38,067 nt of DNA from a virus. Its lineage: Duplodnaviria; Heunggongvirae; Uroviricota; Caudoviricetes. Below, one piece after another: positions 1 to 38,067 of the stretch (its first letter is position 1; each line of letters opens with the position of its first letter). Location of the stretch: the IMG/VR virus record IMGVR_UViG_2541047915_000012; one strand, given 5' to 3'. The translations under genes were made by a program, and so were the position numbers. The notes beneath the pieces are model-generated. The model was not told the DNA's origin and made no database searches. It saw only the letters and a list, made by a program, of their open reading frames with translations.

Positions 1-97
1 AGTCTTGAGTCTTGAGTCTTGAGTCTTGAGTCTTGAGTCTTGAGTCTTGAGTCTTGAGTCTTGAGTCTTGAGTCTTGAGTCTTGAGTCTTGAGTCTT
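1..97 (-). repeat. Tandem heptanucleotide repeat tract (AAGACTC on the minus/coding strand); 13 full copies plus a partial copy cut by the window edge
   Basis: Plus strand reads GAGTCTT x13 (7-97) with 6 nt of a further unit at 1-6; all copies perfect; lies inside the 5' coding end of the minus-strand ORF starting at 102. Confidence 0.97.
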
Positions 98-102
98 AAC
101 AT
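1..102 (-). CDS. neuO: 5' end of a neuO-like phase-variable O-acetyltransferase gene (partial; continues beyond window start)
   Basis: Minus-strand ATG at 102..100 with AGGA upstream; ATG-TTA followed by the repeats translates to MLRLKTQDSRLKTQDS...; repeat unit and position downstream of an endosialidase-like tailspike match the described neuO locus of K1 prophage CUS-3; gene body not in window. Confidence 0.55.
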   Translation of the reverse strand, partial: MLRLKTQDSRLKTQDSRLKTQDSRLKTQDSRLKT

Positions 103-255
103 ATTAGTATCCTACGTTATTTTACCACTAGTTACTTTTCTTGTCATTAAAAAGCATTTAAATTTTTATATTTAATTTCGTTGACGTCAATGTTTTTTGC
201 CAATGTACTTACTTCTTTATGTGATCAGTTCATATTTTTGACGCCAACGAAACAT

Positions 256-3201
256 TTAGTGCTTCCCTTCTATTAAGTCTAACCTAGCTTTTATTCTTTC
301 TATTTCTCTGCGCTGCCATGCTGCCTCGATATAGAATAAGAGATCAGGTCTGACCCCCCATCTAGATCCTGCTGGCGTTATTTCAACGCGCTCAATGATG
401 TCTTCCATTACCATCACTGGATTATCATCCTCATCAACAATGATGCTCCCGTCATTATCAGTCAGCGGCATTTCCCTTTGGCCAGTAATGACGTCATCAT
501 ATACTGCGGGATAATCGTCATAGCAAAGAAAGGCATAGCGGCATGTTGTGCTTTCTTCTTCCATGAGTCCGTGAGAAATAAGAACATCACGAAGTTGCTG
601 CGCGATTACACCATGATGTATCCTCGCCCCTTCTTCCCCCTTTATAGCGACAGCGTTCAGCCATTTATAAGCGATATACCTGACGTCACCCCAGGCATCC
701 AGCAATGTTTCGTCAGGAGAGACCGGCTCTGTCTTTAATGTTCCGTCACTGGTAACCACAGGATTGGAGCCAAGATAAACTATCGAGAACCTGTTTCCCG
801 GACCACCAAGAGCATTTACATTATCAAGATAAGGTTTAACATCTCCGTTCTCAAAAAGATGTTCGAGTGCGTTATATACCGCGCGACGTGGAGTACTGCT
901 TCTGGAACCATGCAACGTTATCATTGCACCATCTGCTGAAGACGTTGTTTCACCGCCGCTAACGATTAATCTCTGAGCGGTAACATCATCAGACGGTACT
1001 TTCTTCGCAATAATGGCGTAATTACCCTCAAGTTTGACTTCCGCGCGAACTTGTCCTGATGTACCTGCATGGACAGTCAGTGACTGGACGGCAACATCAT
1101 CTGTGAAATCAACGGGTACAGGAACCGTCCTCACGCCTGACGTCGACATAAAAGTAGGAAGCGTTCTGTTAGGAGTGGCTCCGTAGACAAAATCCCTTGA
1201 AACAAATTCTTCCTGTTTAATTTTCACCCTGAAACAATACAAATCAGCCGGGTGACCATCGTGAACATAAGGATATTTTCTGTTGTTATCCCCTATGCTC
1301 CATGGGTTTAGAAAGTCTTCCCCACCGAAAATGTAGTACAGCCAGTTGTCTTTGATACAAACTGAACCAACACCAACCGCAGAGTTAACTATTCCGCCCT
1401 GATAAATCTGATCAGTAACATTAACCCACTCTACATTATCCAGACTCCACTCATTGACGTTAACTCTGGTCATAAATGTTCTTGGATAGTTTCCTGCATA
1501 ACGGTTATCAGGTTCTCCTCCTTCCCACTCACCAAATGCGCGCTCACTGCCAAAAATAATCAGCTCATCGCCAACTTTGGCAAAAGGAAGGTTTGAGTGA
1601 TGAACATTATTTGGGAAGCGAAGAGAATTCCATGATGTACCTAAATCAGAGCTTCTGTGCAATGAACTACCGGGTTGAGTACTTAATGTCCCCCTGGTCG
1701 TCAGATACAGAATGCCATCATAATATTTTACACATGGCTCAGATGCATTCGCCTCATATTCTGCAGGTATGCGTCTGCGAACAAAGCTACCAGGAGAACC
1801 GAAAGCATCAGAGAAATAGAGTATCCCAAGCTCGCGTGGACCAATATCACCATTATGGTAGCCAACAGCAAAACTGTTATCGCTAATCGTCGCAAAACTG
1901 TGAATCTCAGTAACAGGAGTGCTTCCGTCAACAAAAGAAGGAATAGTTCCAAGACTGGTTTTTCTCCATGGTGACGAGTGAAATGATGTACCAAAACTCC
2001 AGTATCTACCCTCGTTATTCTGATCCACATCCTGGGTATTTTGCGTCGTAACTGTAAAAGTATTTTTATCAATAACAGTAGTCACCGTCATATTCCCGGT
2101 AACACCTGTAACACCAGAGTTTGAGAAGTTGACAAAATCACCAGCAAATAATCCGTGATCAGTAATGCGAATATAAGCGACTTGCTGATTTGCTGCTTTC
2201 GTTATACCACCATAAACGCGAAGGCTGCGACTCATTGGGCGATCCCACAACTCTGCAACCTGCAGTTTATTTCCGCTCACGGTCCGCGTCTCAATTACAG
2301 CAAAAAGGCGATTTCTGACAACCCCCATACTCATGCAGTGATAGTTAACTGTGGGATAGTTTTCATGTAAATCTGTAAGCCATTCCGGCGTTGTCCAGGT
2401 CTTCCCGTCATCTCCTGAGCGAACCCATGCAACATGGAGGTTATTTACACCATGGCGGTCTCCAGCCATAAAAGGCGCATAGATGACATTGTCATATACA
2501 AACGTTTTATCCTGCGTCCAGGCGTTGTACCACGGTGTATCTGTAATTTTAAATAACTCTCCCTGGATAAAATCTTCAGAAACATAAAAAAGAGGCTGAC
2601 CCGGTATTCTCTCAAATAAAAAACGAGCATTTTTAAATCGACTGACATCTGGAAGAGTTGATACTTTAAAAGTAAGCCCTCGCCCATCTATCTTTTCACC
2701 ACCTGTTGCAACAGAAAGTAATTCTGATAGAGCTGATGTATCATCATGAACACCATCACCAATAGCCCCCCAACCTCTTACATCATAACTGTCTCTCCAT
2801 CTTGCTATCTGAAGTTTTGGGTATTTATTCGCTCCATCTGGGTCTTCTAATTGCTGCCGTAGTTGATCAGGATCATACTTCAGCACATTCTGGAAATAGA
2901 ACTGCTGTACGCCATACGCATCGTACACAGCCATAGAATGGCCTTGCACAGTTACGAACTTGGCAATCCGTCCGTTATATACAGGGTAACCAGCAGCGTT
3001 AATGATGATTGGTTGCGAAACAGGAACGTGAGAGCCGTCTTCGTTCTCTACATAAACCTGAATCCGGTTTTCAGGATTTACCGGGTCAGTGTCAATTTTA
3101 CCGATATAAATTTTGCCATTGGCTACGGCTTTAAAAGAACGCGCCATAGTGAAGAGTTGCGAAGGCATCGATACAATCACATTGGCTGTAATGTCTGTCA
3201 T
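256..3201 (-). CDS. Tailspike protein, probable endo-N-acetylneuraminidase (endosialidase) with P22-type head-binding N-terminus and C-terminal intramolecular chaperone domain
   Basis: 981-aa ORF, GGAG RBS before ATG at 3201; N-terminal ~110 aa resemble P22 gp9 head-binding domain (MTDITANV...[19 protein letters not shown]...VTVQGHSMA); two sialidase Asp-box motifs SGDDGKTW and SSDLGTSW; C-terminal ~150 aa resemble autocleaving chaperone domains of endosialidases and tail fibres. Confidence 0.75.
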
Positions 3202-3258
3202 TTAATTTGCTCCAGATGCAAAGAATCGCCGCAGCATGGCCACGGTGAATTTTGGGCA

Positions 3259-3281
3259 TAAAAAAACCCAGCCGAAGCTGG
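3259..3281 (-). terminator. Rho-independent terminator between ant and the tailspike gene
   Basis: Minus strand reads CCCAGC-TTCG-GCTGGG followed by TTTTTTT. Confidence 0.6.
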
Positions 3282-3301
3282 GTCGTTGCGTTGGTTATCT
3301 G

Positions 3302-4204
3302 TCAGTAATTATGTACTGAAGGAGGTAATTCTTTATTCTTAAGTCTCATCCATGCGGAAAGATTCGTTGGTCCGTCTGGCTCATTGATATCAACATCTCG
3401 TGTGTGATTGATTAAAACGTCTCTCGCCATATCGATAATACGGGAGAACTCATAACCGCAGTCATGACATCTGCCGGAATAGTTCGATTGAATTTGTTTT
3501 AGCGCCGGATACAGTTCGCGGAATAATGCCTGTGAGCGGTTGGCATAATCCCATAGCCATACAAGGCTGTTTGCTTCTTTTGCAGAAAGCTCGTTGGTTT
3601 TCTTCTCTTGTTTGCCGATGAACTCACCTTCAAGCACTACCCTGTGGATGTACTCTACTGCTTGTGGTATCTGAGATGCATCAAGCTCTTCAATACTTTC
3701 CACATTGAAACGCTGATGAATCATTGCATAAGCTTCTGGGTACATTAGATGCTTTTTGCTGACTAGCATATTTACAGCATCACGAAGCGGAGTCCTGTCA
3801 TCAACAGATGTTTTCTTCCGTGCATTTGCTGCCTCTCCCTTTGTCCAGTAGTCATGCAGCACAGTAAAGCATTCTTCCTGGTACTGAATCAGTTTATCGC
3901 GGATGTCAGCACGAACTTTCTCAGGGTTGATGCTGAACAGCCATCCATTTAACTTCTTCAAAGGAAGGCAGAGTAGCTTACGAAGCTTACCATCAGCGGC
4001 AACCATGTTCATATGAACACAGTTGAATTTGCTAATCTGCTTCATGAGTTTTGTTTGCTGCGTTGACCAGCTCATTCCGAGGTTTTCAACGATTGGCTTC
4101 ATCGCAACATATGCAACTCCGGCAGCCATGGCGGTGATAATTTGCTGACCGTTGAATGGCACGTAAGAGGTGTTCACTGCTTCTAAAATTGCTATACTAT
4201 TCAT
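3302..4204 (-). CDS. ant: Antirepressor Ant (P22 immI type)
   Basis: 300 aa from ATG at 4204 ([21 protein letters not shown]...) with GGAG RBS; matches recalled P22 Ant length and N-terminus; tool ORF has a GTG-initiated 22-codon upstream extension judged spurious. Confidence 0.75.
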
Positions 4205-4436
4205 GTTGGTTTTTCTCCACGGATTTACCGACAACCGAAGCCCTGACTGTTCCAGCAGTTGGGGCTTCACTGTTTTGATTTCTTTGCCGCATCAAGCATC
4301 ACTTCTGAAAACGTGCGCTTGCCACTGAATACTCTTTCTCTTCTCAATTTTTCGTTCGTGCCAAATGATTCGCCATGAACAAAATTTGGTCTTAAAATGG
4401 TAATCGCAATCTCTTTGACTACTGCATCCAAGCGAA

Positions 4437-4589
4437 TCACACCGTTACCCCCTCTCTCTTCAGGCTGTCTATCAGGCGCTTGATAACCTCTGAGTTAAAC
4501 GACCTGCACTCTTCCTTTGCCCTGCTACCGATAGCATCCTTTAACGACTGCGGCATCCTTACCAAAATCTTACTTATTTCTTTCTCCAT
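4437..4589 (-). CDS. arc: Arc-like ribbon-helix-helix repressor
   Basis: 50 aa from ATG at 4589 with GGAGGG RBS; ...RSFNSEVIKRLIDSLKREG resembles P22 Arc (...RSVNSEIYQRVMESFKKEG); tool ORF starts at an upstream TTG. Confidence 0.7.
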   Translation of the reverse strand: MEKEISKILVRMPQSLKDAIGSRAKEECRSFNSEVIKRLIDSLKREGVTV

Positions 4590-4703
4590 GTTACCCTCCA
4601 CGCAAACAACTCTTTTCGAATACAAAAGATAGCAAAGTGAGTATATCTAGTCAAAATTTTTTTGCATACACTTTGCTATCAAATTGAATACCAAAGGTGT
4701 TAT
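4590..4703. promoter_or_regulatory. Divergent Pant/Pmnt control region with operator-like inverted repeats
   Basis: Between divergent arc and mnt; minus-strand -35 TTGACT (complement of 4651-4656); perfect 12-bp inverted repeat GATAGCAAAGTG (4628-4639) / CACTTTGCTATC (4669-4680) flanking it. Confidence 0.5.
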
Positions 4704-4952
4704 ATGGCAAAGGGTGTGTCAATTTCTCCAACTACGGTAAGAATCCCTGAATCTTTACGCGAGGCTCTTGCTGTCAGAGCATCAAAAAATGGTCGCTCTG
4801 TTAACTCCGAGATCGTCATGATTTTGCAAGCCGCGATTGATGAAGATAGGTCGCCAAAGTCAGTTGAGTCATTTGCTCAGCAAGAAGCTGATAAATTCAA
4901 AGAGGCGCTACTTGAGACGCTAAAGACCATGTATGCTAAGGATGAAAAATAA
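4704..4952 (+). CDS. mnt: Mnt-like repressor (Arc/MetJ family)
   Basis: 82 aa from ATG at 4704 (AGGTG RBS); ...ASKNGRSVNSEIVMILQAAI... resembles P22 Mnt (...EANGRSMNSELLQIVQDAL). Confidence 0.7.
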   Translation: MAKGVSISPTTVRIPESLREALAVRASKNGRSVNSEIVMILQAAIDEDRSPKSVESFAQQEADKFKEALLETLKTMYAKDEK

Positions 4953-5488
4953 TGCTGCACACAATTCATTTCTTATGCCCTGTTAACACTGCCACTGTTG
5001 GGCAACTTCAGAACCACTGTCTCACCGCATTATCTCAAGGCGCAACTGAATTAAATATCCATATATCAAGTCAGGGAGGGGAAACTGCTGCTGGCTTTAC
5101 TGCGTATAACTTTCTTAAGTCACTCCCTGTTACCGTTAGAACTCACAACATAAGCAATGTTGAATCCATAGCTAATATCGTTTTCCTGGCTGGCTCAGAA
5201 CGTTTCGCAAACCCATTATCAAGATTCCTGTTACATCCTCTATTATGGTGCTTTGCCTCCCCAGCCGCCGACCATGCCAGATTGAGAGAGTACGGGAAAT
5301 GCCTCGATAACGATCTTGATCGCTTCGTTGAGACGTTCAATATCGACATCGGAACCCATATTAGGTGGGCATCCCTGATAGCAGACTCGACCATTTTGGA
5401 TGCTAACAAGGCTCTTGAGCATGGCATAATTAATTCCATAAAAACTGCAAGGCTGGCATCCAATCAGGCAAACTGGTGGGTTGTTTGA
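4952..5488 (+). CDS. ClpP-like serine peptidase (Clp/crotonase fold), function unknown
   Basis: 178 aa; start overlaps mnt stop (TAATG). Alignable by eye to E. coli ClpP: IHISSQGG vs YINSPGG, ...VESIANIVFLAG vs ...AASMGAFLLTAG, SRFLLHP vs SRVMIHQP, ALEHGIINSI vs AVEYGLVDSI; candidate Ser/His/Asp triad present. Confidence 0.55.
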   Translation: MLHTIHFLCPVNTATVGQLQNHCLTALSQGATELNIHISSQGGETAAGFTAYNFLKSLPVTVRTHNISNVESIANIVFLAGSERFANPLSRFLLHPLLWCFASPAADHARLREYGKCLDNDLDRFVETFNIDIGTHIRWASLIADSTILDANKALEHGIINSIKTARLASNQANWWVV

Positions 5489-5510
5489 TGGGTAAATCAT
5501 GATTACTCCT

Positions 5511-5536
5511 TATAAAAAACCCACCTGACGGTGGGT
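5511..5536 (-). terminator. Rho-independent terminator immediately after the YafO-like gene (bidirectional position between convergent genes)
   Basis: Minus strand: TAA-ACCCACC-GTCA-GGTGGGT-TTTTTAT; perfect 7-bp stem, 4-nt loop, T-run. Confidence 0.75.
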
Positions 5537-5986
5537 TTAGTCAAACATAGTGTTTCTAAAGTCTCTCGCATACCCTGCTAACACTCTCATTCTATTATGA
5601 TTGTTAGCAGACATGTGAGCTACAGGATGAAAAAGAGCAATCAATGAATACCTGTTCTCATCAAAAAGATTTTGTGCATAAACGAGAGCGGTATTGGATG
5701 TTTTATGCCACTGCAACTTTTGCGGTGTGCTGATATCTGTGCCATTTTTTATTGGCTCAAATTTATTTTCACCAATTGCTAAATGAAGGTGCATAAGGCC
5801 TGCATCTTCAATATCAGGAGGTCGATGATAAGAGGTGTCTCTGCCAAAATAGCTGGGCAACGTTCCCGTAGACTTGTAGATGATAAAATCATCTACAAGT
5901 GTTTGTTTTAAATCAGGAAACTCAACAAAAACCGGGGAGAAAAAATAGTCAAAACTATCCTGATTATATTCCACGGTTACTTGCAT
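5537..5986 (-). CDS. YafO-family toxin-like protein (putative ribosome-dependent mRNA interferase)
   Basis: 149 aa, ATG at 5986 with GAGGT RBS overlapping upstream stop. Blocks shared with recalled E. coli YafO: DFIIYKSTGTLPSYFGRD vs DFISYKRDGVLPDIFGRD; MHLHLA vs AHIHLA; LIALFHPVAH...NNHNRM vs LIAILKPEPH...DNNQMH; C-terminal DFR vs AFR. Confidence 0.55.
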   Translation of the reverse strand: MQVTVEYNQDSFDYFFSPVFVEFPDLKQTLVDDFIIYKSTGTLPSYFGRDTSYHRPPDIEDAGLMHLHLAIGENKFEPIKNGTDISTPQKLQWHKTSNTALVYAQNLFDENRYSLIALFHPVAHMSANNHNRMRVLAGYARDFRNTMFD

Positions 5987-5994
5987 GTTTTACC

Positions 5995-6561
5995 TCAGTG
6001 GAAGTTACCAGAGTGAAACACACGAGTCCCGTGCTCAGCAAGCGCACGCAAACCAGCCATATCTACGGAACTATCAAAAACAACCGGAACACATGAGCGT
6101 TGTTTAATAAGACTATTCAGGTTGGTTACGGCAGATCTGGCATCAGCAACAACGATATAGATATCTCTTGCGATCTCTTTAAAATCAGCAGAAGCTTCTT
6201 TGAATACCGATTTCATTGCCCCTTCAAGTCCTCTCAATTGATGCTCTATCAATCGAGACTTTTCTGGTTCAATGATAGACAACACATTGTCTACATTCTC
6301 ATCGGTAGCGTTTGCAAGAACACGATAAGCGTATTTCAGCATTCGAGACAATTCTTTAATCGAAGACACCGCCTCATGAAGCTCATCATTAGCCCGTTCA
6401 CTGCTGAATGAGGATTGATGGTAAGCGTGCTGAACGTTATCAGTAACAACCACCTCACAACTGAACGCAGAAGCTTGCTGTAATAGCAAACCTATTGCGA
6501 CTCCAGCTTTGGCAGCGTTCAAGCTAAACATTTCATCAATCCCATTAGTCTCATTGCTCAT
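5995..6561 (-). CDS. Hypothetical protein, upstream operon partner of the YafO-like gene (not recognisably YafN/RelB/Phd-like)
   Basis: 188 aa from ATG at 6561 with perfect AAGGAGG RBS 5 nt upstream; stop is 8 nt before the YafO-like ATG; tool ORF begins at an upstream TTG. Confidence 0.6.
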   Translation of the reverse strand: MSNETNGIDEMFSLNAAKAGVAIGLLLQQASAFSCEVVVTDNVQHAYHQSSFSSERANDELHEAVSSIKELSRMLKYAYRVLANATDENVDNVLSIIEPEKSRLIEHQLRGLEGAMKSVFKEASADFKEIARDIYIVVADARSAVTNLNSLIKQRSCVPVVFDSSVDMAGLRALAEHGTRVFHSGNFH

Positions 6562-6736
6562 ACAAACCTCCTTCTTATCGGAGATTATCAATAGCTATGC
6601 ATCCATTGAATACACGCTATGCGCAATAAGTTTACGTCACGTGATATCATTATGCAACCACCGTTCTATCACCGACTAACTTTACTCCCACTCCTATACA
6701 TCATCTGGTATCCTGCGCAAAACTAAGGAGGTTGGT

Positions 6737-7087
6737 GTGAATGCTCAGTCTGTCATCATGGTTTTCCTTGGGCTGATTGTCGCAAAACTATATCCAGACT
6801 GGTGGAAAGGGGCATTAGCTACTGTCGCCATCTATTTGCTTTTATCCATCGTTAAGCGATCACTCGCTGAGACCGTAAATCAAGCAAAACGTTTCTCATT
6901 TAAGAGTTTAATAAACTATGTTACTGGGCTTATTTTTTGCCTTTCAATTCTGATCGCTTCGGCTTTTTTGCCCGTATCAATAGCTAATTTTTTTGGCGCA
7001 CCATATGAGGTAGGTTATCTATTCTCTGTTTCCTGTCTTGCCATTGCTCTTCTTTACCTGTGGACGAGATCAAAGAATAAAAATTAG
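6737..7087 (+). CDS. Small integral membrane protein (about 4 predicted TM helices), candidate superinfection-exclusion-type protein
   Basis: 116 aa, GTG start preceded by AAGGAGG; hydrophobic stretches VIMVFLGLIVAKLY, ALATVAIYLLLSIV, LIFCLSILIASAFLPVSIANFF, VGYLFSVSCLAIALLYLW; divergent from the 5995-6561 operon. Confidence 0.55.
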   Translation: MNAQSVIMVFLGLIVAKLYPDWWKGALATVAIYLLLSIVKRSLAETVNQAKRFSFKSLINYVTGLIFCLSILIASAFLPVSIANFFGAPYEVGYLFSVSCLAIALLYLWTRSKNKN

Positions 7088-7104
7088 CCATCCGTGGCTG
7101 CCAG

Positions 7105-9121
7105 TTATTGAGCTTCTTTTTGTGATGCCTGTGCGACTCTGGTGAGCGATTGTGTGACCGTACTGATCGCTCTGTCATATGCTGTGCTACCTTTTGGCGT
7201 ATTTGCCAGACGTAACAAGGCATTTCGTATAACAGGGCTTTCGTATGCCTTCGCAGCTCCTCCTACGACACCAGCAGCAGGAACAACAAACGCAGCCGTT
7301 TTTAGCATCCCCGCTAATACTGCTGCGTTTATGATGCCACCACCAACTAACAATCCATAAAGCTGCTGACCATTTAAGTTTTGAACGTTCGCTTTTGCCG
7401 CGTGTCTTGTATCGTTGAGGTATTTAATAACGCCGTCCAGTTCCTTTCCATGTACGCCTTTAAAGAAAGTTGCTGATTGCTTCCTGTTCCGGTGTAACGC
7501 ATTAATAAACTTTTCAACACTAATATTTCCAGACGGATCAGTCGCCTTATCTACAGCATTCTGAACTATGGCTGCTCGTGCGTTTTGCCTACCATTGTCA
7601 TCCAGAAGCCTGTAAAGCTGAGAACGTTCTGATGGGTTTTGGCTAAAAACGAGTTTTGTTACATCCTCAGGTGTAGCCTTGCCGCTGGCTATTGCCTTTT
7701 GAACGCGCGTTCTTCCCATCATGTCATTGAATCTAGCCCATGAGCGATCAACCCTAGACATATTGGCAGCTTCTTCTGAGCCTAGTTTTTGGGATACTGC
7801 TTTTTTCATATCCGCTGTATATGCCTTGTAGACAATATCGCTGGCTTTCTGGAGCGTGTCTTTATCAACAGTCTCGTTTGAATTCATGAACCGCTTTCGA
7901 AGGTCAGTTCTGTTTTCTCTCGCCAGACGCAGGTCATTGGGTCCGCTGGTGATATCGTCTTTAAATTGCTGCAAGACTTTTACCGCGGCTCTATCCTGAG
8001 ATTTGCCCGGGCGGCTTAACACGGCAATCTGATTGTCGATAGCTTTTACCGTGTTTGAGAGATCGACAGGGGTATCCCCCATAGCGTCAATTATGCGGTT
8101 ATATCGCTTTCCTGCTGCCTCAATGAATTTTTGTTGCCCTTTAGTCGCAGATTCATAAAGCTGTTTATCAGAAATGCCACCCAGACCATCGCTAAATGTT
8201 CTGACTAAATTTTCTCGTGCTTGTTGTTGATTCAGCCGATTCTTACCGGTTCCAAAAAAAAGGAACTCTTTCGCCTAATGTCTGAGCCTGACTCTGCATA
8301 AAGGTTTTATCTTTCAGCGTGTCACTGGTCATTAACGGCAGGTTTCTTTCCGACGCAAAATCGACAGCAGCCTTTGCTTCCGGTGACATCTCACCGCGAA
8401 CAGCCCTGGAAACCGCACTAACTGTATTTTCCAGCCCCTTGCCAACACCACCAATGCCAGCAGAAATTACCGTTTGTGCAGGATCAATATCTTCTCCGCC
8501 AGCAAGGCTGGTGCCACCCTGTAGTGCTAAATCTGTAGCAGCTGATTTCCCTATGGCACCAAGCACCGTTCCAGCCCTGCCCGCTGGTGTGAACGCTAAC
8601 GCATTAGCAAGAAACGAAGTCAGGTCTTGCGGTGATAAACCTGGCTTGTTCAGGGCATAATCACCGGATGGCAGGGAAACGATAGTGTTACCCTTCTCAT
8701 CCTGCCTTAATTTCGCCCCCATACTCTGAAGAATCTTTTCCTGAGACGCGTCGGAGCCGAAAAGTTGAGACCATCCAGCCTTCAGGGCATCCATGCTTAG
8801 TGAGTTCAACTCAGGGGCAGCCCCAACATTTTGCAGTCTCTCCATTTCTGGTGTCATTCGGCTTTCACCGGTAACGGCATCGCGCATTGCAGCACCTAAA
8901 ACAGCCCCTTGCTCAGCAGAGCGATCTAGTCCTTCCTTCTGCTGAGTGGCAAGCTGTGCATATCCTGATGCAAGTGAGTTGTCTGCTGGCGATTGCTGAA
9001 CACCTTGTTGTGTTGGCGCTGACTGACCAGCAAAATACTCATCAATGGCGGACCCAATATCTTCCGTGCTCGTACCATCAGGAAAGGTAAATGTCTTACC
9101 ATTTGCAGTTACTTTCATCAT
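7105..9121 (-). pseudogene. Ejection protein gp16 homolog with reading frame interrupted at an A8/T8 homopolymer
   Basis: Two same-strand ORFs (8243..9121, 292 aa; 7105..8082, 325 aa) where P22 has one gene 16; the downstream ORF frame stays open upstream through the homopolymer at 8254-8261, so a 1-nt change would fuse them (~670 aa). Confidence 0.5.
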
Positions 9122-10569
9122 TCCACCGTAAATTGAATGCCTGATTTTGACGTGTAGCTACCTCCTGCTGATTGCTGAGTAGCTGGCTGTTGCCTTGATG
9201 ATTTCTTCCCGCCATTACCAACATTAACGTTATATTGCTGGTTGTAATTGTCGGTATATTGCTGAATGTCGCGCATTGATTGTTGCAGCGCTTCAGGACT
9301 TGAGAAATCAGGCTTTGGCATACCCTGAAAATACCTATTGGCCTCTGCTTCGGTGTTGATGCCAGATGCCCCCATATCTCGGGCTGCTGCAATCCCCTGA
9401 TTTTGCATTTTGCCCATGATTCGCTGTGCAGCGTTGTATAGCCTCCTCTCCTCAACACCAGATGCCCTGCTACGAATATCTGCACCAAGAGCAAAAGAAC
9501 CTGAAGAACCTGTAATACCTGTCATGAAGCCAAGATCGTCAATTGATGCGCCAGAAATTGCATCAAGATCTTTCTTCATTTCGTAATTCTGTGCATTAGC
9601 TGCCGATGTAGCCGGAGCAGCAATAGAACTGGCGGGGACGCGAATCATATTGCCCTCGTTGTCTATTCCTTCGTAGAACGCATTAGCACCAGCGCCGTGA
9701 AGCTTCCTACCAACCGTTACCGTTCTGCCATCTGCCAGTTGCACAACATTCTCCCCGCCAGCATCAGGACGACCTCGAACACGAAGATATGTCTTTTGTT
9801 GCTCTGGAGACAGGCTGTTGAAATATTGATATTCTTTAACAGATGCAGGAACAGCACCTCCAGCAGTGCGCAGGGAGTTTTCACGGCTAACAGCAATGCT
9901 TTGCGCCTTTAAACCTTCCCCAGCTTTATTGCTGCGAATCGTCTCTGCCAACTTGCCACGCTCAATATCCCGACCTTCCATTTGATCTTTGATATCGAAA
10001 TACTTCTCATGACCGAGAGAAAATAGTGCCAGATTACCTGCGAAGTGCTGGAAGCCCTGCGGGTCATTAACCTGCATTTCCGCAATAGTTTCTGGAGGGA
10101 TACCTAAACGACGCATCTCCTTTTCGTTATCCATCATGAACCTGCCAAATGCACCCGGACCAAGCGACGAAGCGACCTGAGCCTTAAGCGCCAGATTGCC
10201 AAAATCATCCCGCTGGGCGTCATCGACATACCCCATGCCTTTACGGACTTCCTCAAACTCTTCGGGGAATGCTGTAATAAGATTACGCATCTGCTCCCTG
10301 TCGCCGGACGCATAAGCATCCGCATAACCTTTCTGGAATGCCGCTTTACGCTCCTGCTTTTGCTGCTGCTTATAAATATCAGCAACTCCAGCCAGACCAC
10401 GAAGACCTGTCAGAGCAACGTTATTTGCACCTGATCGAGCCAGTTCATTGTTTTCGCGGATCAGACCAAGCGTTGCGTTAATGTCGCTTGCCTTTGGCGC
10501 ATTCTCATTTTGCGTACCGATGCCAGCCAGAAACCCACCAGAATTAATACCCTGTTGCCACGTAGCCAT
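9118..10569 (-). CDS. Ejection protein (P22 gp20-like)
   Basis: 483 aa; position between gp7-like and gp16-like genes and size match P22 gene 20. Confidence 0.6.
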
Positions 10570-10579
10570 TGATTACCCC

Positions 10580-11272
10580 TTAAAACAACGAGCCAAGCAG
10601 ACCAAGACCAGCACCGATACCAGCACCCCACGGAGTTGATAGCTCGAGAGCACTGGCTATGCCACCACCCAAAAGCGCACCGGATGCAGCACCACTAACA
10701 CCCTGCTGCAATGCTGACGGTCGGTTGGCGTTTGCCGCTGCAAGAGCCGCGCTTTGCTGTGAAATCTGACTCATGTTGTTGGCATATGTTTGCCCGGCGT
10801 TTGCCTGCCCCTGAAGAGCGCCAAGACCGATATTTGCCAGGTTGTTGTAATTGTTCATTTGTCCAGATAGCCATTGCTGACCAAGCGTTGGTGCGATTGT
10901 TGCTAACTGATTACTGGTTGCGGTGGAACCCAATCCACCTGTTGCTTCCGCTGCCGCCAGACTCTGATAGCGAGCCTGACCTGCAAGGTCTTTATACTGC
11001 TGAGAGTTGTAATACTGGTTAAGTGCCTGACCTTGCCCTTCCAGAGACGATAAGTTCTCAAGGCTGCCGACATACTTCCCAGCCAGAGGAGTAAACAGCT
11101 TCAGGTTGTTCATGATGGTGTTGAACTGCTGATTTTGCAGGTCTGCGGCATACTTCTGAGCTTCTGCTGCATACTTTGCGCTTTTATCAGAACTGCCACC
11201 TTTCCCGCCTTTTTCAGGGTAATAAGGTTCCTCGCCGCGCAGTTTTCTGCCCAGCGTAAATGCATATAACAT
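10580..11272 (-). CDS. Ejection protein (P22 gp7-like)
   Basis: 230 aa, Gln/Ala/Gly-rich with glycine-rich hydrophobic C-terminus; synteny and size match P22 gene 7. Confidence 0.6.
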   Translation of the reverse strand: MLYAFTLGRKLRGEEPYYPEKGGKGGSSDKSAKYAAEAQKYAADLQNQQFNTIMNNLKLFTPLAGKYVGSLENLSSLEGQGQALNQYYNSQQYKDLAGQARYQSLAAAEATGGLGSTATSNQLATIAPTLGQQWLSGQMNNYNNLANIGLGALQGQANAGQTYANNMSQISQQSAALAAANANRPSALQQGVSGAASGALLGGGIASALELSTPWGAGIGAGLGLLGSLF

Positions 11273-11274
11273 GG

Positions 11275-11730
11275 CTATCTCCCGTGATTCAGGAAGTCGA
11301 TTAGTTCTTCGCGTGTGGCGCTGTAAAACGTCACGTCATCCACGCCTTTGAAGTATTTCTTGATGGTTCCTACACGCTTAAGGCCAATCATTGCGCAGTA
11401 CATCTGCCCGTGGCGGAATTTGCGTGCAGCAAATGATGTGACGCACTGAACGGTGGTGTTGGTCAGAATGTATCGCCAGAACGCCAGCCCTATTTCCTTG
11501 CTGAAGCCGCGAATCTCTGGCAGGTACATGGCGTGGCAATCGAATGTAAGCGGCTGAATCTCCTGATAGTAAACAATGCCGCCAAACTGACCGTGCACGT
11601 TCACCTCAAAGTAACGGCAATCAGGTTTGTAGTCGTATCCATCACCGTTGTTGCTCCCGGCGATGATGTCAGGGTGATTTCCTACTGCTTCGATCAGGTC
11701 GATGTTTCGCGTTGGTTTGAATGTAATCAT
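11275..11730 (-). CDS. Head/tail assembly protein (P22 gp14-like)
   Basis: 151 aa; located between gp26 and gp7 homologs as in P22. Confidence 0.5.
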   Translation of the reverse strand: MITFKPTRNIDLIEAVGNHPDIIAGSNNGDGYDYKPDCRYFEVNVHGQFGGIVYYQEIQPLTFDCHAMYLPEIRGFSKEIGLAFWRYILTNTTVQCVTSFAARKFRHGQMYCAMIGLKRVGTIKKYFKGVDDVTFYSATREELIDFLNHGR

Positions 11731-12431
11731 CAGTCAATCAGCCCATGTAATCTAAGTGCTGTTTCAAGCGCCAGAATACGCTGCCGCGCCTGCTCCAAAC
11801 CTGTAGCGATAGCTGCGACTTCGGATTGTGTGTACGTAGTGCCGACCGTGTATGACTGGTTAGCGTTGAATGAGCCAAGAAGTGGTGTGCCTGTGGCCGC
11901 TGTCCATCCGGTCTGCCTTGCTCCAACGACCTGAATTCCATCAACTGAATATGATGTTTTTACATCCAGCGGTGACGCAAGAGACTGCGATTCTGTTACG
12001 GTTTTCGATACGTAATCACTCTTAATGTCAGATATATCGCTTTCTACGCCATCCAGTCTTTGGTCAACAGTGACCAGATGCGCCTGAATATCGATAACCT
12101 CATCCAGCAAGTAATCAACATCGCTACGCAGTACAACTATCTTCCCTTCGGCGGTTGTTAACCTGACCTCAAGGAGATTTATCGCTTTTGTGTTTGCGGT
12201 GATTCTTGCATCGTGGTCAGCCAGTTCGACATCCTGTTCATCGTTTTTCACCTGAGCATCGTAAGCGCCCTGACCAGCCTGATTTGCTTTCCCGGCAATT
12301 GCGCCGACATCAGCCCCCTGATTAATGACATACAGCAGGTAAGACTGGCTGAATATATTGCGTGGAAGGATTGATGTATCGAGCCGCGTCGCCTGCACAA
12401 TAACAGGGGTGTTGAGATTCGAATCAGCCAT
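11730..12431 (-). CDS. Tail needle protein (P22 gp26-like)
   Basis: 233 aa from internal ATG at 12431 ([18 protein letters not shown]...); N- and C-terminal regions (...[24 protein letters not shown]) match recalled P22 gp26; start overlaps gp10 stop by 1 nt. Confidence 0.75.
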
Positions 12432-23796: not shown

Positions 23797-23868
23797 TGAA
23801 GTGGTTTACTGAATTTGGCCACCTGAACAGAGGTGATATGCTCACCTCAGAACAACACAGGTGCCATA

Positions 23869-25016
<1,148 letters not shown>

Positions 25017-25204
25017 CTCGGTGGCCAGTTTTTGTTGACCACTTCAATATGACCGGCACGGTGTGCCATATCACGGACCGGCGGGTGTCTCGTTCACCTG
25101 ATTAACGCATCAGCCTGCGTATTCACCACAACGATAAGAGTACTGCGCGGCACCTTTCACCAATTCCGCGAGGTCTGCGGGTTCAATGCTCTTACCTGTT
25201 GTGC

Positions 25205-37866: not shown

Positions 37867-38067
37867 ATGCAACACGAACTACAACCTGATTCACTGGTTG
37901 ATTTGAAATTCATCATGGCCGATACTGGCTTCGGTAAAACCTTCATCTATGACCGGATTAAGTCCGGCGACCTGCCAAAAGCCAAAGTTATCCACGGGCG
38001 AGCAAGATGGTTATATCGTGACCATTGTGAATTCAAAAATAAGCTCTTAAGCCGCGCCAATGGGTAA
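37867..38067 (+). CDS. xis: Excisionase / AlpA-family DNA-binding protein
   Basis: 66 aa ending exactly at window end; MADTGFGKTFIYDRIKSGDLPKAKVIHGRARWLYRDHCEF fits the AlpA/Xis winged-helix pattern; expected position next to integrase (beyond window). Confidence 0.6.
   Translation: MQHELQPDSLVDLKFIMADTGFGKTFIYDRIKSGDLPKAKVIHGRARWLYRDHCEFKNKLLSRANG

Follow-up and report, generated by a model that had tools for sequence, protein, structure and literature searches.

A heptanucleotide tract at the start of neuO in a CUS-3 provirus of Escherichia coli and its reading as a phase-variation switch

Organization of the locus

The window analysed here is a 38,067-nucleotide stretch of viral DNA (Caudoviricetes; IMG/VR record IMGVR_UViG_2541047915_000012) whose left edge lies within the 5' end of the minus-strand gene neuO. 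Tandem Repeats Finder (TRF) reports a single perfect array at positions 1-97 (period 7, 13.9 copies, 100% matches, no indels, score 194), and the runner-up array across the 38 kb scores only 61. A regular-expression search of the reverse complement finds ATGTT followed by (AAGACTC)x13 and AAGACT, and the minus strand thus reads ...AGGATACTAAT ATG TT (AAGACTC)x13 AAGACT up to the window end (Table 1). A perfect 97-nt array of period 7 cannot be of chance origin. The initial annotation had described at least 13 perfect AAGACTC copies on this strand, and both searches agree with it and with its coordinates; it was also right that the window edge cuts through the tract and leaves its ON/OFF state unreadable, the fourteenth copy stopping at 6 of its 7 bases. 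The tract had been placed two codons after the ATG, and this distance is actually two nucleotides: the repeats start inside codon 2 of neuO (ATG TTA AGA CTC...), 2 nt past the ATG, as also stated by Schulz et al. 2011 (PMC3046976). The ATGTT junction is common to the window and the loci of CUS-3, S88, MS7163, and PE144. A codon-2 variant in which ATG TCA (Ser) replaces ATG TTA (Leu) before the tract is found in phiv205-1 (L002 3414-3418) and in four IMG/VR contigs (L009-L012), and it marks a second neuO/CUS-3 lineage.

Scanning IMG/VR for at least 4 AAGACTC copies also returned non-neuO contexts (L008, L013, and L014). The array in L008 and L013, (AAGACTC)5(AAGCCTC)4 at 3097-3168 in L013, belongs to an unrelated metagenome phage and occupies the spacer that separates a structural-looking gene from the following ATG, while L014 carries (AAGACTC)6 in AT-rich DNA; neither is neuO.

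Table 1. Coordinates of the features at the neuO end and the far end of the window, and of contig ends within the tract in related prophages.
Feature	Position	Strand	Basis or remark
Poly(psi) heptanucleotide tract	1..97	-	TRF, regex, CP000711.1 label "neuO poly(psi) domain"
13 full AAGACTC copies	97..7	-	Regex
Partial 14th AAGACTC copy, first 6 of 7 bases	6..1	-	Cut by window edge
TT between neuO ATG and tract	99..98	-	Sequence
neuO start codon ATG	102..100	-	Sequence; position 102 is the A of the ATG
Putative Shine-Dalgarno-like AGGA	110..113	-	7 nt upstream of neuO ATG; read from sequence
siaK1-neuO intergenic region	103..255	-	Consensus scan
Sigma-70-like match ATGACA-17-TAAAAT with TG, 10/12	147..119	-	Consensus scan only
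Sigma-70-like match TTGACG-17-AAAAAT, 9/12	190..162	-	Consensus scan only
siaK1 endosialidase tailspike gene, 981 aa	256..3201	-	ORF, Pfam, CUS-3 annotation
attR core, 16 bp, TTGCAGGTTCGATTCC	37832..37847	+	Equal to CUS-3 attR; far prophage end
Contig ends in neuO tract	L005 1-97; L006 13995-14093; L011 13119-13185		IMG/VR, related CUS-3-like prophages

Immediately upstream of neuO and on the same strand lies siaK1, in line with the initial description of the tract as downstream of an endosialidase tailspike. The siaK1 product carries the Pfam domains Head_binding (P22-type), End_N_terminal, End_beta_propel (E=1e-233), End_beta_barrel, End_tail_spike, and Peptidase_S74. Over the 158 nt preceding the neuO ATG, which comprise 153 intergenic nt and the final 5 nt of siaK1, the window and S88 show 100% identity. 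Our consensus scan of this interval yields two promoter-like candidates for neuO and cannot choose between them, and no terminator-like site was found in the siaK1-neuO intergenic region. Transcriptional control of neuO by DsdC, which binds the neuO promoter region, has been described (PMC9659370).

Prophage context

Megablast against phage records aligns window positions 1-3634 at 98.5% identity with positions 2271-5904 of CUS-3 (CP000711.1, host E. coli RS218), where the record annotates a "neuO poly(psi) domain" of AAGACTC repeats next to the "siaK1 endosialidase tailspike protein". Whole-window blastn extends these matches collinearly from the tract (CUS-3 2271) to the attR core (CUS-3 40207, window 37847), interrupted by non-matching mosaic segments. 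Judged by these alignments, the window is the CUS-3 prophage from the neuO tract to attR. The assignment to neuO of the K1 prophage CUS-3, made initially from the letters of the window, is thus borne out by a match that begins at the tract and by a record that labels it. For annotation, the locus identifies the window as part of a K1 E. coli, probably of ST95 type, that is lysogenic for CUS-3.

Because the match to the RS218 CUS-3 record is missing or partial by megablast in four segments (3635-10365, 23800-25046, 27555-29584, and 31806-33955), we regard the prophage as a mosaic variant relative to that record. The first of these segments is identical to S88 and MS7163, and the S88 annotation places in it Ant, two Arc-family genes, a ClpP-like protease (4952-5488, plus strand), and a YafO-family toxin (5537-5986, minus strand). 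More broadly, window positions 98-12000 (11.9 kb) align over their full length with 100.0% listed identity to S88, MS7163, APEC O1, ATCC 11775, and others.

At the far end, a complete torI ORF (37867-38067) starts 19 nt past the att core (TTGCAGGTTCGATTCC) and ends with the window. Its product is a KplE1-type excisionase/TorR inhibitor. The att core lies upstream of torI, which therefore falls outside the core-delimited prophage of CP000711.1, though its partner integrase intS sits at the opposite prophage end. The next gene beyond torI in S88 is dsdC, whose product is the reported neuO regulator (PMC9659370). A search for tRNA genes, made to place attL and attR, found none within the window, and argW sits left of the window region, judged from S88. 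IS elements have inserted in or close to the tailspike region of several CUS-3 copies (phiv205-1, FY26, NCTC11151, E10, and ATCC 11775), and a few E. coli genomes have 2-3 matching places, with 3 in ExPEC XM.

A probable neuO body past the window edge

The window ends inside the tract, and the acetyltransferase body thus lies outside it. In phiv205-1 (n=18 repeats), the annotated coding sequence is M-S-(RLKTQDS)x6-FSVDDNG..., 258 aa long, and this protein matches PDB 3jqy, "Polysialic acid O-acetyltransferase" (E=1.3e-160), as well as Pfam Hexapep. We inspected the continuation past the tract in loci whose junction is away from a contig end, and a NeuO body follows the ATGTT/ATGTC-tract junction in CUS-3, phiv205-1, S88, MS7163, PE144, and three IMG/VR contigs. 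The initial annotation had named a missing acetyltransferase ORF downstream as the finding that would speak against it; reference loci that share the upstream flank exactly do carry this ORF, which matches 3jqy (E=1e-160). Among complete E. coli genomes that match a query of neuO plus tract, 158 of 178 carry at least 80% of the query, and the partial matches among those listed mostly comprise the tailspike end alone, lacking tract and ATG.

These data bear on the possibility that the switch is vestigial, its neuO body past the window edge being deleted, truncated, or IS-disrupted in the source strain. Such a loss would go unseen in the window, all but the 3' 239 nt of the query is missing from one complete genome, and IS elements lie near in several CUS-3 copies (siaK1 of phiv205-1; FY26, NCTC11151, and DSM 30083). 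We nevertheless consider a vestigial switch very improbable: the large majority of matching genomes retain most of the query, the listed partial matches without tract and ATG are a different class from the window, and the inspected junction loci all run into a NeuO body. These body-bearing relatives, both the junction loci and the complete genomes, make it highly likely, though not certain, that neuO is intact in the source strain, left of the window.

Repeat number and reading frame

The dependence of neuO on repeat number was followed in an in silico rebuild that joined ATGTT, (AAGACTC)n, and the S88 downstream sequence for n=9-24. The full ORF, ending in ...HAKLTQ*, appears solely where n is divisible by 3. 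Alleles with n%3=1 end in ...RLVFR* just past the tract, those with n%3=2 end about 20 codons beyond that stop, and the products of OFF alleles are stubs of 28-73 aa. Annotated genomes follow the same rule, with intact coding sequences at n=18 (phiv205-1), n=21 (MS7163, 265 aa), and n=60 (PE144, 356 aa), no coding sequence annotated at n=19 (RS218), and a C-terminal fragment alone called at n=34 (S88). The rebuild and the annotations thus uphold the initial claim that the full gene is read only if the repeat number is divisible by 3.

They also speak to the idea that the tract acts on neuO transcription, e.g., through promoter spacing, rather than on the reading frame. Control of this kind is known for some contingency loci, and the region is AT-rich with promoter-like hexamers. 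However, the tract lies downstream of the ATG and not between promoter elements, and ORF integrity follows n mod 3 exactly both in the simulation and in the annotated genomes, leaving a transcriptional role of the tract with almost no probability.

Variation of tract length across isolates

To compare tract lengths, CUS-3 positions 1590-2530 (941 nt, n=19) were matched against all complete E. coli genomes and n was derived from the match span in the best 60 records and 31 further records from a spread sample. The deviation of the span from 941 nt is an exact multiple of 7 in all 60 of the best records and in 30 of the 31 records of the spread sample. The exception, UM146, deviates by 6 nt, pointing to an indel or a misassembly in another part of that record. 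Copy numbers obtained in this way range from n=3 to n=60 among 90 complete E. coli genomes, and direct counts confirm the span method for S88 (34), MS7163 (21), and PE144 (60); long reads and Sanger sequencing have likewise given 21 repeats in MS7163 (PMC13001214). Tract length is hence far from invariant across isolates, the observation that the initial annotation would have taken as evidence against its reading, and it changes in 7-nt steps.

Phase ON (n divisible by 3) is seen in 28 of the 90 complete genomes (31%), which approximates the one-third expected from unbiased drift and is close to the 34% reported for 64 genomes (PMC13001214). Twelve of the genomes with 100.0% listed identity over the adjacent 11.9 kb have n=10, 11, 14, 26, 26, 27, 30, 30, 34, 34, 38, and 39. 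The tract thus changes much more quickly than the sequence around it, the hallmark of a contingency locus. Within a single clone, MS7163 has been described as a mix of 93% n=21, 1.9% n=20, and 5.4% n=22 (PMC13001214).

The window edge as a probable assembly break

A scan of IMG/VR for the tract/ATG junction turned up two contigs that share 98-99% identity with the window without being the same sequence, and both stop within the tract after 13 copies plus 3 nt; a third contig ends there at 9 copies plus 4 nt; short tracts (n=8, 9, and 12) are assembled through in IMG/VR contigs. Other contigs thus end in the same tract, and the cut at the left edge of the window is therefore probably an assembly break. 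The right end of the window coincides with a gene boundary, the torI stop codon, and its left end lies mid-repeat. A gene boundary at the window start was considered and rejected, since in each frame of the plus strand a TGA recurs at 21-nt intervals and the stubs made in phase OFF stop past the tract, not inside it; a contig break explains the edge better. The window is probably a provirus extracted from a short-read contig whose assembly stopped at the neuO repeat, and its 13 copies would then reflect read or k-mer length rather than biology, with the true n probably larger. The "13 copies" of the initial annotation hold as a count within the window but form a lower bound set by the end of the sequence, not a property of the strain. 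More generally, short-read contigs end inside the neuO tract, and ON/OFF status is not callable from such assemblies.

That the window and three related contigs end within the tract, where assemblers struggle, could also suggest that the tract itself arose as an artefact in sequencing or assembly, or that it is a simple repeat without function. This reading is refuted by the finished genomes, about 90 of which resolve the tract at the same place, as does the curated CUS-3 record; we give it practically no weight and regard the truncation as the sole artefact. It is also highly unlikely that the tract is unusual past the edge, either by exceeding the published maximum of 93 copies or by being phase-locked through an imperfect unit, and nothing points there. 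A long or interrupted tract of this kind, if present, would be a naturally phase-locked or extreme-activity neuO allele.

Proposed mechanism and significance

Taken together, we hold it as very probable that the locus is the neuO slipped-strand phase-variation switch of CUS-3. In this gene, ATG-TT-(AAGACTC)n would be followed by the acetyltransferase body, and the perfect 7-nt repeats would mispair by strand slippage during replication, a mechanism taken from the literature, so that whole units are gained or lost and each one-unit change moves the reading frame by one base. Where n is a multiple of 3, translation would reach the left-handed beta-helix acetyltransferase domain and the gene would be ON, with the capsule O-acetylated as the phenotype known from the literature; at any other n, translation should stop shortly past the tract, leaving the gene in phase OFF. 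Slippage has been described to alter tract length, with single-unit changes the commonest (Schulz et al. 2011, PMC3046976), and the unit, position, rule, and mechanism of the tract are as described in PMC3046976, PMC13001214, and PMC9659370. In ON alleles, three units encode one RLKTQDS heptad. The same correspondence of one heptad per three units has been reported together with a catalytic efficiency that is linear with heptad number (PMC3046976), and because efficiency is reported to rise in this way, the tract may be seen as both a switch and a dial, the activity gradient again coming from the literature.

Phase variation of neuO decides O-acetylation of the polysialic acid capsule of E. 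coli K1. O-acetylation has been linked to K1-phage and neutrophil resistance, serum sensitivity, immunogenicity, and desiccation tolerance (PMC13001214, PMC9659370, PMC3046976), with the protection from K1 phage and neutrophils and the serum sensitivity described in PMC13001214 and PMC9659370.

Comparison with known systems

The locus shares with the neuO poly-psi locus of CUS-3 (Deszo et al. 2005 PNAS, cited in PMC3046976; CP000711.1) the unit AAGACTC, its strand, and its position 2 nt after the ATG, along with the upstream intergenic sequence, the endosialidase tailspike neighbour, the prophage backbone, and the argW-type att core. It differs from CUS-3 of RS218 in the mosaic make-up of the prophage, whose first 12 kb are of the S88/MS7163 type, and in copy number, with at least 13 full copies in the window versus 19 in RS218. 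The tract of the window is the already-known neuO contingency locus of CUS-3 and holds no new biology. What our analysis adds is the correction from codons to nucleotides, the lower-bound copy number, and the confirmation of variation in 7-nt steps in 90 finished genomes.

A first parallel is the serotype-converting cargo of P22-like phages, such as gtrABC of P22 and oac of Sf6, which mediates lysogenic conversion by modifying the polysaccharide that is recognised by the phage's own tailspike. Like these genes, neuO is placed at the int/att-tailspike end of the prophage. Unlike them, NeuO acetylates the K1 polysialic acid capsule and not the O-antigen, and neuO is switched by an intragenic repeat, whereas gtrABC and oac are constitutive or Dam/OxyR-regulated.

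A second parallel is found in the contingency loci of Haemophilus, Neisseria, and Campylobacter, which carry intragenic repeats with a unit that is not a multiple of 3 and vary by slipped-strand mispairing. The neuO tract resembles them as a perfect short repeat in the 5' coding region with frameshift ON/OFF switching and a length that is hypervariable between otherwise identical genomes. In contrast to these loci, neuO has a heptamer as its unit and resides on a mobile prophage, and its tract encodes a functional N-terminal RLKTQDS domain of tunable length, which modulates activity (PMC3046976).
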